Source: Firmicutes bacterium ADurb.Bin153 (GTDB lineage Bacteria > Bacillota > DTU025 > MWDF01). From it: a stretch of DNA of 32,000 nt. Of the stretch, positions 10,965 to 19,246 are shown piece by piece; the first letter of the stretch is position 1, and each line of letters opens with the position of its first letter. Made by a program: the position numbers and the translations under genes. Below the pieces are notes generated by a model. That model saw nothing but the letters and a program-made list of their open reading frames with translations, searched no databases and was not told where the DNA came from. The stretch lies in contig MWDF01000003.1 in assembly GCA_002070415.1 (NCBI GenBank), forward strand, positions 25,960-57,959. The letters run 5' to 3'.

Positions 10965-11849
10965 TTACTTGAACAACTCCGGATGTAGCAACCTGGCGAG
11001 CTCCTCCAGTCCGTCGACCAGCCTCGGCCCCGACCTCACCAGAAGGTCCGGGTTCGCCTCGACGACCCTTCCCGACCTTACTGCTGACAGGTCCGACCAG
11101 GCCTTCCTCGAGAGGACCTCAGCCTTGTTGTAGTTCGTGAGCACTATCAGGTAGGGGTCCTCCTTGATGACGGTCTCTTGGCTGAACACGGGCCAGCCCG
11201 TCACGCCCTCAGCTATGTTCCTGCCGCCGGCGAGTCTTACCAGCTCGTCCACGTACGTGCCCTTGCCAGCGGTCATAAGGGGTTCGTTCCATATCTCCAC
11301 GAACACGGACGGCCTGCTCTTCGCCTTGGCCGCCAGGTCCTGGACCTTCCGGATCCTGGACGAGAGCGAAGCCGCGAGGGCATCCGCCTCGGCTTCCCTG
11401 CCGCCTACCTTGCCCAGCAGCTTGAGCGCTTCGAGCATCTCGGAGACGTTGTCGGCCTTTATGGCGAGCACTTTCACCCCGAGCTCTCTGATCTTCGATA
11501 TGGTGTTGCCGCTCATGCTCGTGTCCGCCACCACCAGGTCCGGCCTCTTCGCGAGCACCGCCTCGATGTTTATGTTCACGTCCCCTACTTTGTCGACCTT
11601 CTTGGCCTCCTCCGGATAGGTGCACCATGCGGTCACCCCGACGAGCCTGTCGCCTAGGCCCACCGCGTAGAGCATCTCCGTCACGCTGGGAACTATGCTC
11701 ACTATCCTCCTTGGTTCTTCCTTTATCGTCACTTCGGTCCCCGTGGCGTCCTTCACCGACAGGGGATAGCCCGCGCTCCTTGCGGCCCCGGACGCGAACG
11801 TCGACAGCAGCAGCACCGCTATCATCGCAAGTATAGTCGATCTTCTCAT
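10965..11849 (-). CDS. Periplasmic/lipid-anchored substrate-binding protein, BtuF-like (cobalamin/siderophore class)
   Basis: Start chosen at ATG 11849 (MRRSTILAMIAVLLLSTFASGAA signal peptide) with SD AAGGAGG 8 nt upstream. Contains RIVSIVPSVTEMLYAVGLGDRLVGVT...PDLVVAD, typical of this class. The tracked start at 11969 lies inside the riboswitch. Confidence 0.85.
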   Translation of the reverse strand: MRRSTILAMIAVLLLSTFASGAARSAGYPLSVKDATGTEVTIKEEPRRIVSIVPSVTEMLYAVGLGDRLVGVTAWCTYPEEAKKVDKVGDVNINIEAVLAKRPDLVVADTSMSGNTISKIRELGVKVLAIKADNVSEMLEALKLLGKVGGREAEADALAASLSSRIRKVQDLAAKAKSRPSVFVEIWNEPLMTAGKGTYVDELVRLAGGRNIAEGVTGWPVFSQETVIKEDPYLIVLTNYNKAEVLSRKAWSDLSAVRSGRVVEANPDLLVRSGPRLVDGLEELARLLHPELFK

Positions 11850-11889
11850 CTGCACTACCTCCTTAGTATAGGACGGTAGTGACTTGCAA

Positions 11890-12190
11890 GCCCTGAAAGA
11901 TGAAAGCCCGCTCACCTTTCGGTGAACGGGCTCAGTAGACCAATTAGGCCTGCATCCCCCTTTTTCCACGAAGGCGGAACAGCTACTTGCACGGGCAGGT
12001 CTCCTGGCTTGCGACCTTTGTTGGCGCTGCCCTTGCCTTCCCGGCTTCTTGCCAGTGGCTCGGGCTTTTCCGGTCGCGTACAGTGGCGGGACCGCGGGCT
12101 TGCCGGAGACCGTTCTTCATATCTCCCCGGTGCCTCTTCCCTATTATCCCCACGCGGTGGGGCACCCATGCAGGTTATGCAGTTGTCACT
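11890..12190 (-). promoter_or_regulatory. Cobalamin (B12) riboswitch with terminator-type expression platform
   Basis: The minus strand contains GGTGCCCCACCGCGTGGGGATAATAGGGAAGAGGCACCGGGGAGA...GGTCCCGCCACTGTA...AAGCCAGGAGACCTGCCCGTGC. The last element is the B12 box (12016..11990). A 12-bp stem follows, AGCCCGTTCACC-GAAA-GGTGAGCGGGCT (11932..11905), then TTCATCTTTC, ahead of the btuF-like SD. Confidence 0.85.
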
Positions 12191-12262: not shown

Positions 12263-14179
12263 TCACCGTGCCTTCCCGCCGCCTTCCCTGAACCTTCTGA
12301 AATCCCCGCTCCTTTGCGTGAGTTCCAAAGCGTCCATCCACTCCAGGAGCGCTATGGCGTATTTCCTCGACGTCCCCAGGGCGTCTCTGAGCATCGCGGC
12401 CGTGAACTGCCCCTCGAAGCTTGAGGCCGCCTTTACGGCCATCCCTATCGCATCCTTGTGGAAGGTGATCTCTGAGGAGGCCTTTACCAATATGCCCTCT
12501 CCTACGAGGTAATCCGCGATCGGGCCTATGCCTTCTTTCGACGCCTTTATGACCTCTTCCAGGTCCGGCGGCGCCAGCAGGCCCTCCTTGAAGGAGGCCT
12601 CGAGCGCCCTTGCCGCGGCCAGTTGCTTCTCGCTTAGCCTTACCTCGTGCGAGGTAAGCCTTACTAGTTCGCCTGACTGCGTTATGCGCCCTTCTGCGGC
12701 CTCACGCTCCAACAGCGCTCCGGCCTGTTTCTTGTCGAGCCAGGGCATCGCCTTCTGCCTGGCCTCCTCTTTGGGCATCCCCTTCCTCAGAGGATGTTCC
12801 AGATGGTACGACGAAAGCGCCGCCTGGAGGCCGTCTGCCAAGAAGCCGTACGAGGCGGCGTCCATGAAGTGGCGCACGCCCTCTGCCTTAAGCTCCACAA
12901 GTGCGCCTTCCCCGACGGCCTTGGCCGACGCGGCAGCGAAGGCCTCCTCGCTCATGTAGGCTTGTCTCCTCAGGGCCCGCTCCTCCATGGGAAGGGCCTG
13001 CGCCCCCTTCGCCCTCGCGCCGGATCTTACAAGTTCTGCCAGCACGACGGCGATATCGGCCGAGGCGAGCTTTGCGATCGACACCGCCTCTTCTTCGGAG
13101 CCCACCTTGCGCCTCGGGGGGGACGCCATTACCACGCGCCCTCCTGCCAGAGTCGCCTGTGGCGAATAGGACCTGAGGATGAAACGGTCGCCCCGCGCGG
13201 GGCAGATCCTCTCCTCGACGTCCAGCTGGATGAAAGCGGTGTCCCCCTGCGGCTGCTTCGGCACCCTGGCCCTTGCTATAGCCTCGACGGTTCCTATGTG
13301 TAGCCTTAGCCTTTCGTTGTGCTCTATCGCAGGCGAGCCTTTCAGCATCCTTAGCTCGGCGTCAATCAGGGACGTGGGGGCAAGCCAGCCCTCCGACGCG
13401 AGGGCCATGCCCCTTTCGACCTCATCCCTGTCTATGCCAGCCAGGTTTAGGGCCACGCGCTGGCCGCGTACGGCCTGCGGCACCTGTTCGTCGTGCACTT
13501 CGACCTTCTTAACCCTGACCGTCCTACCGGGCGGGAGAAGCTCCAGCCTGTCGCCTTCCGCGACGGGCCCGCCCAGGAGCGTGCCGGTCACCACGGTACC
13601 CTGCCCCGTCATGGAGAATGACCTGTCGACGTAGAGGCGGGAGGCCGGCTCGGCGGACCTTTCGCGCGCCTTGGACGAGACTGCGTCCAGCTCGGCCGCA
13701 AGCTTAGCGACGCCTTCGCCCGTGACAGAGGATACCGGCACTATCGGCGCCGCTTCGAGGCTCGTTCCCTCAAGGCGCCCGCGGACTTCCTCTACGACCA
13801 TCTCAAGCCAGTCCTTCTCCACCAGGTCCGCCTTCGTGACCGCCACCACGCCCTTGCTTATCCCGAGCAGCTCGAGGATCTCGAGGTGCTCTTCCGTCTG
13901 CCGCATTATCCCCTCGTCCGCCGCAACCACGAGCAGGGCCACGTCCACGCCGCCGGCGCCGGCCGCCATGTGCTTTATGAACTTCTCGTGCCCGGGCATG
14001 TCGACGACGCCGAGCACCAGTCCGGAAGGCAGGGCGAGGTGGGTGAAACCGAGCTCTATCGTCATGCCGCGCGCCTTCTCCTCGGGAAGGCGGTCCGTAT
14101 CCGTTCCCGTAAGGGCCTTTATCAGCGAGGTCTTGCCGTGGTCGACGTGCCCCGCGGTGCCGAGTATGAGGTGTTTCAT
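12263..14179 (-). CDS. selB: Selenocysteine-specific translation elongation factor SelB
   Basis: 638 aa. N-terminal GTPase MKHLILGTAGHVDHGKTSLIKALTG...DMPGHEKF...TKADL, then a long winged-helix C-terminal extension. ATGA overlap with the selA stop. Confidence 0.95.
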   Translation of the reverse strand: MKHLILGTAGHVDHGKTSLIKALTGTDTDRLPEEKARGMTIELGFTHLALPSGLVLGVVDMPGHEKFIKHMAAGAGGVDVALLVVAADEGIMRQTEEHLEILELLGISKGVVAVTKADLVEKDWLEMVVEEVRGRLEGTSLEAAPIVPVSSVTGEGVAKLAAELDAVSSKARERSAEPASRLYVDRSFSMTGQGTVVTGTLLGGPVAEGDRLELLPPGRTVRVKKVEVHDEQVPQAVRGQRVALNLAGIDRDEVERGMALASEGWLAPTSLIDAELRMLKGSPAIEHNERLRLHIGTVEAIARARVPKQPQGDTAFIQLDVEERICPARGDRFILRSYSPQATLAGGRVVMASPPRRKVGSEEEAVSIAKLASADIAVVLAELVRSGARAKGAQALPMEERALRRQAYMSEEAFAAASAKAVGEGALVELKAEGVRHFMDAASYGFLADGLQAALSSYHLEHPLRKGMPKEEARQKAMPWLDKKQAGALLEREAAEGRITQSGELVRLTSHEVRLSEKQLAAARALEASFKEGLLAPPDLEEVIKASKEGIGPIADYLVGEGILVKASSEITFHKDAIGMAVKAASSFEGQFTAAMLRDALGTSRKYAIALLEWMDALELTQRSGDFRRFREGGGKAR

Positions 14180-15612
14180 CTGTCAGTGTCCTTCATGAAC
14201 GCGCGCGCTATAGCGTCCGCAAGGACAGCAAGCTCGGCGTCCCTGACTGTCCTGAGCGAGAAGAGCATCCCTCCCGCCCGCTCCAGCGCGACTACCGCAG
14301 GCCTTGCCTCCCTAAGGGCGCCGGAAGCTTCGGACGCCTTTACGTCAGACGAGCTCACATGCACTCCGGCGCCTTTGAGCTCGGCTCCGGGCAGTGAGCC
14401 CCCGCCTACCTCGTCAAGGGTCTCCACCGGCCGGAATGAGATGCGCCCGGCGGCGGAAGTACTACCGGTCCTCTCTTTTATCATCGAGCAGAGCATTACG
14501 GCCCTCGACATAATTTCCTCGAACGGCTCTCTGAGCATGGCAACCGTCGGGATGTCGCACGCCGAGTCCTCCGATTCGTACTGGGCCAGGGTGGCGGCCA
14601 GGGCCGCTATCCTCATCTTGTCGACCCTGAAGGCCCTAGCGAGCGGCGAGCGGGATATCTTCGACACTAGATCCGCCTTCCCCGCTATGATGCCGCATTG
14701 GGGCCCTCCGAGCAGCTTGTCCCCCGAGAAGGTCACCACGTCGGCGCCTTGCTCGATCGCGGCCTTCGGAGAAGGTTCCGGAGGCAGGCCGAACGCTTGA
14801 ACGTTCGCAAGGCACCCGGAGCCCACGTCGAATATGAACGGGATCCTGTGCTTCCTGGCGATTTCGGACAGTTCCCTTACGCCGACTTCGGACGTGAAGC
14901 CCGTGATCTTGAAATTGGAGGGATGTACCTTAAGTATCGCGACTGCGCCCTCAGACGCCGCCTTCTCGTAGTCCGAGACCCTGGTCCTGTTCGTAGTCCC
15001 GACTTCCATAAGCACGGCGCCGGTCACCGACATTATGTCCGGCACCCTGAATGAGCCGCCTATCTCGACGAGCTCGCCCCTGGATACCGCAACTTTCCCG
15101 CCCTTGGCCAGCGCGTCCAGGCAAAGCAGCACCGCCGCCGCGTTATTGTTGACGACGATGGCGGATTCCGCACCAGTGATCGAAGCCGCGAGCCCGCCGA
15201 TGTGGGCCTGCCTCGAGCCCCTCCTGCCTTGTACCAGGTCGTACTCGAGGTCGTTGTATCCTTCTGCCGCCTCGACCGCCGCTCTTATCGCAATGCTTGA
15301 CAGGGGCGCCCTCCCCAGGTTCGTGTGGAGCACCACTCCGGTCGCGTTTATCACCCTCACGAGCCCCGGTACGCTGGATCCCAGTCTCTCTTCCGCCGCA
15401 GCCAGGGCGTATGATGCCGCAGCCTGCCTGTCGGGCTTGCCGGCGCCGGCGTCCCTTAAGGACGCTATGGCGGTACGCAGCTGCTTTACGGTAGCCGCCC
15501 TGCCGTACGTTAGGCAAAGTCTCCTGCCCTCGTCCGATCCGATCAGGGAATCTATCGACGGCAGGACGCTCGACGCATCCTTCTTCGAAGAAGCCATCTC
15601 CTCACCTCTCAT
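14176..15612 (-). CDS. selA: L-seryl-tRNA(Sec) selenium transferase SelA
   Basis: 478 aa. Contains ...VINATGVVLHTNLGRAPL... and TFSGDKLLGGPQCGIIAGK (PLP-lysine region), diagnostic for SelA. The alternative start at ATG 15597 is equally plausible. Confidence 0.95.
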   Translation of the reverse strand: MRGEEMASSKKDASSVLPSIDSLIGSDEGRRLCLTYGRAATVKQLRTAIASLRDAGAGKPDRQAAASYALAAAEERLGSSVPGLVRVINATGVVLHTNLGRAPLSSIAIRAAVEAAEGYNDLEYDLVQGRRGSRQAHIGGLAASITGAESAIVVNNNAAAVLLCLDALAKGGKVAVSRGELVEIGGSFRVPDIMSVTGAVLMEVGTTNRTRVSDYEKAASEGAVAILKVHPSNFKITGFTSEVGVRELSEIARKHRIPFIFDVGSGCLANVQAFGLPPEPSPKAAIEQGADVVTFSGDKLLGGPQCGIIAGKADLVSKISRSPLARAFRVDKMRIAALAATLAQYESEDSACDIPTVAMLREPFEEIMSRAVMLCSMIKERTGSTSAAGRISFRPVETLDEVGGGSLPGAELKGAGVHVSSSDVKASEASGALREARPAVVALERAGGMLFSLRTVRDAELAVLADAIARAFMKDTDR

Positions 15613-15667
15613 GGCGCGATGCGCGGTAAAAAGGAATATCAGCCGCAGCCCGGCTGCCTCTGACGCG

Positions 15668-16726
15668 CTAAGGCCTTCTGAACCGTGCCCTTATCATGCG
15701 ATCCGAGCGCGGGATCATCCTCCCTATGACGCTGTGCATGCATCCGCCGGCCTCCAGGCCCTGCACGAGCGCTCCCAGGGCCTGCTCGGGAATCGCGACA
15801 AGCAGGCCGCCCGACGTCTGGGGGTCGAACATCAGCGACGCCACCGACATCGGCACACCGGCGTCCACTTCGACCTTGTCCGCCAGCCAGGAGCGGTTCC
15901 TGGCTGCGCCGCCGGGAAGGAAGCCCTCCTCTGCGAGCCTTGCCGCCCCAGGCAGAAGCGGCACATCCTCCAGCCATACCTCGGCCGAGGTCCCAGAAGC
16001 TTCCGCCATCTCGAATAGGTGGCCGAAGAATCCGAATCCGGTGATGTCGGTGGCGGCCCTCGCCCCCGCTTCCACCATCGCCTCGGACGCTGCCCTGTTA
16101 AGCGCCAGCATGGAAAGCCTTGCCGCTTCTGCCGACTCCTCGGGGCACATCTCGTTCTTTATCGCGGTCGATATGACCCCCGTGCCTATCGCCTTCGTGA
16201 GCACCAGCATGTCATTCGGCCTCGCGTTGGAGTTCGCCGTTATCCTCGACTTTTCCACGATGCCTGTCACCGAGAGGCCGAACTTGAGGTCCTCGTCCTC
16301 TACTGTGTGCCCGCCGGCCACGACCGCGCCCGCTTCGTTCACCTTCTCGGCGCCGCCTTTCACTATCGCCCCGAGCACCTCCTCGCCCAGATCCCTGGGG
16401 AAGCAGGCTATGTTGAGCGCTATCACCGGCCTTGCGCCCATGGCGTATATGTCGGACAGCGCGTTGGACGCGGCGATGGCGCCGAAATCGTACGGATCGT
16501 CAACTATGGGCGTGAAGAAGTCCACCGTCTGGACTATGGCGATGTCCCCGCCCAGGCTGTACACGGCGGCATCGTCGTAGGTGGCCGTGCCCACGATGAG
16601 GTTCTCGGCTACCTGCGGCGGTATGTGGCTCATTATCCTATGAAGGTCCGCCGGACCCATCTTGGCCGCTCAGCCGGCCTTCGACGATATCGCGGTAAGC
16701 CTTTTCACGGTCTTGGTCCCATCCAT
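15668..16726 (-). CDS. selD: Selenide, water dikinase SelD, Sec-containing form (in-frame UGA at 16672..16670)
   Basis: The tracked ORF (15668..16660) extends in frame through one TGA to ATG 16726, which has SD AAGGAGGAG 5 nt upstream. This gives MDGTKTVKRLTAISSKAG-U-AAKMGPADL.... The UGA aligns to the catalytic Cys of the GAGCGCK loop with Lys at +3. The rest (DDAAVYSL...VDFFTPIVDDPYDFGAIAASNALSDIYAMGARP) is canonical SelD. Confidence 0.9.
16645..16672 (-). other. UGA-Sec codon plus candidate bacterial SECIS hairpin inside selD
   Basis: UGA at 16672..16670. Twelve nt downstream is the stem-loop GGUCC-GGC-GGACC (16657..16645), extendable with G.U and A-U pairs. The apical loop contains G residues, as in bacterial SECIS elements. 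Confidence 0.5.
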
Positions 16727-16759
16727 GGGCACTCCTCCTTCCCGCCGCCTCGCGTCCTG

Positions 16760-17392
16760 CTATTGCTTTTTCTTCTCCGCCTTGGCCTTCTGGGCCTTTT
16801 TGGCGGGCGCCTTCTTGCCCTCAGCTTTCACCTCGGGTTCGGTCAGTATCTCCCTGATCAGCATCTTGGATGCCGACACCATGATGTTCGCCTCGAGCGC
16901 CAGCTTCGAAGCGAGCATGAACATCTGGGTGCTGTCGCACTGGTCCCCCATGTAGTCCATCGCCTCATGCACCTTCTCCGCCACGGATTCGCACGCTTCT
17001 TTCTGCAACTTGAGGTACACCCTGTACTTCTCCTCGGTGGAGATCTCTGCCCCCTTCGCGTTTAGGAGCTTGGATATGTCGGATATGGGCAGAACCTGCT
17101 TGGCGGTATCCAGCATGATGAGGTTGGCTATGTGGTCCTTGTTGTACTTCTTCTTTACGGGCCTTTGTATGGTCCCGTCCTTCACGTAGTTGTTGACCAT
17201 GGACGCGGTGAGCGACCTGGCGTCGTCCTTTGCCCTGTAACCCGAGGACTGCCTTTCGAGCATCGTCAGCACCTGGTCCATGTACAGCTCGATTCCGGGC
17301 AGCTCGTCCCAACCCGGCGCGCTAGTGCCCTCGAGCCTCGTTAGCCACTGGATCACTTTGTCTCGGCATTCCTGCATGGCCACAACCTCCAT
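16760..17392 (-). CDS. DUF1836-family protein with Lys/Ala-rich basic C-terminal tail
   Basis: Contains ...ELYMDQVLTMLE...LTASMVNNYVKDGTIQRPVKKKYNKDHIANLIMLDTAKQVLPISDI..., the DUF1836 core as I recall it. The tail is EVKAEGKKAPAKKAQKAKAEKKKQ. The likely true start is ATG 17377 (SD GGAGG 8 nt upstream). The gene ends 33 nt before the selD start. Confidence 0.7.
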   Translation of the reverse strand: MEVVAMQECRDKVIQWLTRLEGTSAPGWDELPGIELYMDQVLTMLERQSSGYRAKDDARSLTASMVNNYVKDGTIQRPVKKKYNKDHIANLIMLDTAKQVLPISDISKLLNAKGAEISTEEKYRVYLKLQKEACESVAEKVHEAMDYMGDQCDSTQMFMLASKLALEANIMVSASKMLIREILTEPEVKAEGKKAPAKKAQKAKAEKKKQ

Positions 17393-17453
17393 GGGATCTT
17401 CTTAACATTAATTTATCACGCTGTGCACCTCGTGTAAAAACAGTATCGTTCGC

Positions 17454-19151: not shown

Positions 19152-19246
19152 TGGCGGGAGTGTGTGGGAATCGAACCCACCGCGGACAACAAGTGCCCGC
19201 CACCGGTTTTGAAGACCGAGGGACCCACCGGGACCCAGCCACCCCC
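19152..19246 (-). tRNA. selC: tRNA-Sec (anticodon UCA), CCA encoded
   Basis: Minus strand: GGGGGTGG-CT-GGGTCC-CGGT-GGGTCC-C-TCGGT-CTTCAAA-ACCGG-T-G-GCGGGCA-CTTGT-TGTCCGC-G-GTGGG-TTCGATT-CCCAC-ACACTCCC-G-CCA. It has an acceptor arm of about 8 bp (one terminal mismatch, one G.U). It has a 6-bp D-stem with a 4-nt loop and a C-U-UCA-A-A anticodon loop. It also has a 7-bp long variable arm, a 5-bp T-stem with a TTCGATT loop, and discriminator G. This is the bacterial 8/5 tRNA-Sec architecture, 95 nt. Confidence 0.9.

Follow-up and report, generated by a model that had tools for sequence, protein, structure and literature searches.

We found that the selD gene of the window (here, the whole stretch of 32,000 nt of Firmicutes bacterium ADurb.Bin153 DNA that was analysed) very probably encodes a Sec-type selenophosphate synthetase, with a short hairpin downstream of an in-frame UGA as its SECIS. 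On the minus strand, the reading frame runs from an ATG at 16726..16724 to a TAG at 15670..15668 and holds a single in-frame TGA, at 16672..16670. With this TGA read as U, the N-terminal peptide is MDGTKTVKRLTAISSKAG-U-AAKMGPADL... and the conceptual product has 352 aa. An earlier note on this DNA had described the Shine-Dalgarno sequence, the ATG at 16726, the one TGA, the downstream ATG at 16660, the letters of the hairpin and the peptide; when checked in the sequence all of these were as described, and the length of 352 aa was correct, but the Sec that the note had counted as residue 18 is residue 19. The features of the locus are collected in Table 1.

The 352-aa product matches TIGR00476 (selD) at 382.7 bits, against a cut-off of 125, and also exceeds the cut-off of NF002098 (330.7 versus 299). 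Its alignment with E. coli SelD (3u0o) is full-length (residues 9-341, E 9e-71) and lays RLTAISSKAGCAAKMGPADL over the N-terminal loop of the E. coli protein, with U19 on Cys17 and Lys22 on Lys20, which confirms the earlier suggestion that the UGA occupies the Cys17 position with a Lys at +3. In this stretch G18-U19-A-A-K22 lies opposite G16-C17-G-C-K20, with both the Cys/Sec and the Lys at +3 present; UxxK is the motif given for the SelD family (PMC13188914). Furthermore, the DDAAVY, DFF, NALSDIY and TDITGFG motifs of the product are conserved in the E. coli alignment. Homology and this equivalence of residues point to selenophosphate synthetase function for the product, which is about 50% identical to SelD homologues outside its genus and is encoded by the one selD found in the 1.93-Mb, 89% complete genome assembly.

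Table 1. Coordinates of selD, its signals and the neighbouring genes in the window
Feature	Position	Strand	Evidence
selD, full-length CDS, 352 aa, predicted Sec at residue 19	15668..16726	-	TGA translated as U; TIGR00476; 3u0o alignment
Strong Shine-Dalgarno AAGGAGGAG, 7 nt 5′ of ATG 16726	16732..16740	-	direct sequence reading
Predicted Sec codon UGA, residue 19, equivalent to E. coli SelD Cys17	16670..16672	-	alignment to 3u0o and 2yye
Internal Met23 codon, the wrong start of gene callers (330-aa product)	16658..16660	-	ORF list; protein-collection entry
Candidate SECIS hairpin GGGUCC-GGC-GGACCU, 6 bp including one G-U, 3-nt loop, 17 nt UGA-to-loop	16644..16658	-	
selA (Sec synthase)	14176..15612	-	TIGR00474, 496 bits
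selB (Sec-specific elongation factor)	12263..14179	-	TIGR00475, 347 bits, full-length match
tRNA-Sec (selC), anticodon UCA	19152..19246	-	ARAGORN; Rfam RF01852, 76.4 bits (gathering score 47)
DUF1836 gene directly upstream of selD	16760..17392	-	Pfam PF08876, 105.9 bits

The UGA is conserved well beyond this genome. In a sample of 41 genomes from its genus, order and phylum, strong matches to selD numbered 36, of which about 33 carry exactly one in-frame TGA; two of the three exceptions do not reach the N-terminus. Every selD extracted from the phylum sample has its TGA as the codon in G-U-[AG]-x-K. Among 104 motif-bearing homologues, spanning Bacillota, Chloroflexota, Actinomycetota, Desulfobacterota, Nitrospirota, Acidobacteriota and other phyla, the catalytic codon is TGA in 92 and a Cys codon (TGC or TGT) in 12, a 92:12 ratio that, in a set chosen by similarity to the query, is no population estimate.

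The sequence on either side of the TGA bears on where translation starts. Among seven species of the genus, the 18 codons 5′ of the TGA keep their protein sequence (RLTAISSKAG) and vary at synonymous sites, which is the pattern expected of translated sequence. The earlier note had named close relatives without the N-terminal Gly-rich loop as evidence that would count against it; what we found is that the genus keeps these 18 upstream codons as protein. Met23, the residue after the Lys, is a Met in this genus only and elsewhere an Ile, Leu, Val, Trp, Tyr or Phe. As it is replaced in most relatives, the downstream ATG is no conserved start.

The hairpin downstream of the UGA pairs GGTCC (16657..16653) with GGACC (16649..16645) around the loop GGC (16652..16650), with a sixth pair between G16658 and U16644. 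The core begins 12 nt after the UGA, as the earlier note stated, or 11 nt after it when the G-U pair is counted. The published model of the bacterial SECIS (bSECIS) has an apical loop of 3-9 nt with a G within its first two positions, an upper stem of 4-16 bp and 16-37 nt between the UGA and the loop (PMC13188914). Although short, with five Watson-Crick pairs and one G-U, the selD hairpin falls within this model: its GGC loop of 3 nt starts with a G, its stem has 6 bp, and the spacing from UGA to loop (16669..16653) is 17 nt. A permissive Rfam search of 16560..16740 returned chance-level matches only and no SECIS family.

In the proposed mechanism, translation would start at ATG 16726, and the hairpin in the mRNA (16658..16644) would recruit SelB carrying Sec-tRNA(Sec) to the UGA at 16672..16670, so that Sec would be inserted at residue 19, in the N-terminal Gly-rich loop (G-U-A-A-K). 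Both the binding of SelB to this hairpin and the insertion of Sec are what we infer from the sequence.

The hairpin overlies the codons of M-G-P-A-D-L, and synonymous codon choice is thus constrained there. Folding energy gives a modest signal in the gene itself. The 81-nt fold around the UGA has a z of -0.93, the energy alone being unremarkable at that width, and a 39-nt window compared with synonymous recodings of the same selD gives p = 0.2. The hairpin region alone reaches -8.6 kcal/mol, versus -3.98 ± 1.93 for the synonymous recodings (p = 0.05). These energy tests are weak because the M-G-P-A-D-L peptide fixes most of the paired bases and leaves only the wobble positions free. Applied to many genes, the same recoding test of the hairpin region separates the two types, the median z being -2.13 in the 91 Sec-type genes and +0.36 in the 12 Cys-type genes.

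Codon choice is the more telling measure. Of 52 Sec-type genes with G-P-x-D, all 52 encode the Gly that has to pair with GGU, a codon with a background use of 15% in the same genes, and 51 encode the Asp with GAC, although the compared selD sequences are related and such counts overstate their independence. Cys-type genes encoding the same peptide use GGU for the Gly in 2 of 7 cases and GAC for the Asp in 2 of 7, and across the selD of the window GGU accounts for just 2 of 34 Gly codons. A gapless alignment of 89 sequences likewise favours the proposed register, in which 75.8% of the cells are paired versus 22-59% in slid registers. None of 500 shuffles of this alignment matched the observed pairing or covariation score, and nine double changes fall on pair 18-26 of the hairpin alignment.

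A similar footprint is seen at closer range. In the selD genes of seven congeneric species, which share 64-85% protein identity, 169 columns have the same degenerate amino acid throughout, and at only 26 of them do all seven use the same codon. The codons of the hairpin residues K, G, P, A, D and L are nucleotide-identical in all seven species at six positions out of six, against a background of 12% (binomial P = 3.4e-6). This freeze is local: the two Ala codons just 5′ and the codons 3′ of it vary, and no such run elsewhere is longer than 3. Collectively, a footprint this sharp and local, together with codon choices unlike those of the Cys-type genes, would be hard to explain without a constraint at the RNA level that is tied to the UGA. 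In its codon choice, in the register controls and in its synonymous freeze across seven species, the hairpin that the earlier note proposed as a SECIS behaves as one.

Gene callers have missed the N-terminal part of this protein, as the earlier note had anticipated. In the mechanical ORF list the gene begins at ATG 16660 and has 330 aa; the entry for the SelD of the window in a large protein collection (P0002) is likewise 330 aa long, and those of its nearest relatives have 329-332 aa at 93-94% query cover, one of them bearing the NCBI name 'selenide, water dikinase SelD [Bacillota bacterium]'. The truncated 330-aa product is without both Sec19 and Lys22, and the ORF from Met23 is an annotation artefact. 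A 2026 review reports the same mis-calling problem for selenoprotein genes (PMC13188914).

Two other accounts of the TGA deserve to be weighed against Sec insertion. The TGA could be a genuine stop, leaving either a 330-aa protein that starts at Met23 or a decaying pseudogene, an account that matches the ORF of the gene callers and has an ATG ready 9 nt after the TGA. That ATG, however, has no ribosome-binding site 5′ of it and encodes a residue that most relatives have replaced, whereas the 18 codons before the TGA look translated and the TGA itself is kept in 92 homologues. The protein so produced would be without the equivalents of Cys17 and Lys20, in a genome that retains selA, selB and selC and has this as its sole selD; we give a genuine stop next to no chance of being the right explanation. 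Alternatively, the UGA could be read through without Sec, by a near-cognate Trp or Cys tRNA or under a reassigned genetic code. Low-level read-through of UGA does occur in bacteria generally. Nevertheless, the stops of the long ORFs in this genome are 2299 TGA, 1794 TAG and 1189 TAA; as TGA is the commonest stop and also ends selA, the genetic code is not reassigned, and that candidate was ruled out. The complete Sec machinery encoded beside selD, and an RNA-selected hairpin that stands at SECIS distance in the UGA-type genes only and not in the Cys-type genes, also speak against Sec-free read-through, which we consider very improbable. The preferred reading is accordingly a Sec codon at residue 19.

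The genes for selA, selB and tRNA-Sec lie within 7 kb of selD and on the same strand. For selA, an ATG at 15597 behind AGAGGTGAGGAG, its own ribosome-binding site, is a likelier start than that of the longer ORF in Table 1, and the TGA stop of selA overlaps the start of selB (ATGA). The earlier note placed selD at the head of a selD-selA-selB operon, a placement that does not agree with what lies upstream. A DUF1836 gene on the same strand ends 33 nt 5′ of the selD start, and such a gene is found directly upstream of selD in 7 of 7 genomes of the genus. The sole promoter-like site near the sel cluster (17438..17410), a consensus match only, stands before the DUF1836 gene. Given this gene and the promoter-like match before it, selD is probably the second gene and not the head of the cluster, and the DUF1836 gene is the probable first gene. 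Its protein has a Lys-rich C-terminal tail, and the gene may either have a role in selenium metabolism alongside the sel genes or simply come first in their cluster.

Other elements were seen around these genes. The gap between selD and selA contains a GC-rich hairpin, CAGCCGGGCTGCGGCTG, at 15640..15656 on the minus strand, with a weak T-rich tail that makes it terminator-like by pattern; terminator-like sites near selD are no commoner than in shuffled sequence. Immediately downstream of selB, a cobalamin riboswitch (RF00174, 81.4 bits, 11977..12184, minus strand) precedes a gene for a BtuF-like/TroA-like substrate-binding protein (10965..11969, minus strand).

Beyond catalysis, the Sec-UGA might serve as a regulatory device, the autocatalytic, selenium-gated switch that the earlier note supposed. 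Under this hypothesis, full-length SelD would require the selenophosphate that SelD itself makes, a selenium-dependent positive feedback, and termination at codon 19 might in addition exert polarity on selA and selB. The logic of the pathway permits such a loop, with SelD producing the selenium donor for SelA, and selD is a neighbour of selA and selB on one strand. The idea goes back to 1996, to judge from a reference in PMC10778597 to Guimaraes et al. (PNAS 93:15086), whose title proposes autoregulation. Catalysis, however, suffices to explain a Sec at residue 19, and the DUF1836 gene, not selD, comes first in the cluster. Moreover, selA has its own ribosome-binding site after a gap of 55-70 nt, which makes translational coupling to selD unlikely. 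The regulatory reading is a hypothesis that gene order and the ribosome-binding site of selA weaken a little, and we hold it to be unlikely. The broader proposal that the UGA at codon 19 would sense selenium on behalf of the DUF1836-selD-selA-selB cluster as a whole is more doubtful. If it were true, scarce selenium would lead to termination at the UGA and so halt the synthesis of SelD, and the loss of ribosome cover would lower selA and selB; the Sec pathway would then be a bistable, self-reinforcing on/off system, with the DUF1836 gene as part of a selenium module.

The genome was scanned for TGAs that lie in frame, have coding signal on either side and come with a SECIS-like hairpin, and selD ranked second. 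The possibility that SelD is the sole selenoprotein of the genome was rejected, as three other candidate selenoprotein genes were found. Their products are secreted paralogues, about 360-375 aa long, whose PQQ_2/BamB-like matches are weak. The three genes rank beside selD in the scan and lie outside the window, on contigs C26 (plus strand; locus L114), C15 (minus strand) and C6 (minus strand), with the TGA at 0-based offsets 6500, 12145 and 43905, respectively. Each has one in-frame TGA after a Cys (C-D-T-U, C-U and C-A-T-U) and a hairpin of the GGGACC/GGUCCC type 14 nt downstream of it. When the three were compared with NCBIfam models, none matched except one weak BamB hit far below the cut-off.

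All seven genomes of the genus contain relatives of these paralogues, with copy numbers from about 2 to 7 or more. Some 23 full-length matches, down to 23% identity, all carry one TGA, and one further match carries two. Outside the genus, the phylum sample gave a single weak match (E 1e-9), in one genome, and the remaining 33 genomes gave none. Neither 'propeller' nor 'PQQ' appears in the text of the 2026 review of 119 selenoprotein families (PMC13188914). We regard the PQQ_2/BamB-like paralogues as a candidate lineage-restricted, expanded selenoprotein family, one that looks more novel than the Sec-SelD finding. The 89%-complete assembly yielded no Sec-type FdhA, SelU/YbbB (tRNA 2-selenouridine synthase), YqeC, GrdA or GrdB, a result that had first raised the possibility of SelD as the sole selenoprotein; for GrdA and GrdB the negatives are weak, their controls having matched nowhere.

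The Sec-type selD genes of many other lineages show a second strong hairpin over the codons of A-Q-V-L-R/C/S, about 27-50 nt after the UGA, for example GGCGCAGGUUCUGCGCC (loci L021, L026, L028, L030, L032, L035, L043, L046, L055 and others). Its GGUUC-type loop resembles the loop of the E. coli fdhF SECIS. This second hairpin over A-Q-V-L-R is absent from the selD of the window (p = 0.59) and from the rest of its genus, and over the Sec-type set as a whole the signal is not significant (median z = 0.13). The lineages differ in form: many other Sec-SelD genes combine loops of 4-5 nt with a second hairpin, whereas this genus has the 3-nt GGC loop.

This arrangement has known counterparts. Sec-containing bacterial SelD proteins belong to the same TIGR00476 family, have Sec at the same position of the loop followed by x-x-K, and carry a SECIS within the CDS right after the UGA. 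The Aquifex aeolicus protein (2yye/2zod) has SGCAAKVGPGDL where the product of the window has AGUAAKMGPADL; it was reportedly crystallised with Cys replacing the native Sec. E. coli SelD (3u0o) shares the fold, the catalytic loop and the motifs DDAAVY, DFF, NA(I/L)SDI and TD(V/I)TGFG, but its catalytic residue is a Cys (UGC), no hairpin lies downstream of that codon, and its loop peptide differs from the GUAAKMGPADL found here. Like the E. coli fdhF SECIS and the bSECIS consensus, the selD stem-loop starts from about 11 nt after the UGA, has a G at the start of a small loop and leaves 17 nt between UGA and loop. The fdhF element has a GGUC loop with a bulged U; the candidate SECIS of selD is shorter and has the 3-nt GGC loop instead. 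Mammalian SEPHS2 (SPS2) is also a selenoprotein selenophosphate synthetase, has the same logical feedback loop and is reportedly the object of the 1996 hypothesis of Guimaraes et al.; unlike the selD of the window, it relies on a SECIS in the 3′ UTR and on different factors (SBP2 and eEFSec).

Only one prokaryotic selenoprotein family is more widespread than SelD (PMC13188914), and Sec-SelD examples include Haemophilus influenzae and Clostridia such as Moorella thermoacetica and Clostridium difficile (PMC1794560). A Sec-containing SelD, the UxxK motif, an in-frame SECIS and the feedback idea are all already known from the literature, so the biological addition is small, and the finding is the recognition of a known arrangement. 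Its practical value lies in annotation, as selenoproteome or metabolic reconstructions built on the truncated calls will misread the selD of this MAG and of its relatives. GGU and GAC, as opposed to any codons for the same G-P-x-D-L peptide, are a clean and simple marker of the SECIS, and this codon contrast could serve for the automatic flagging of Sec-type selD genes.
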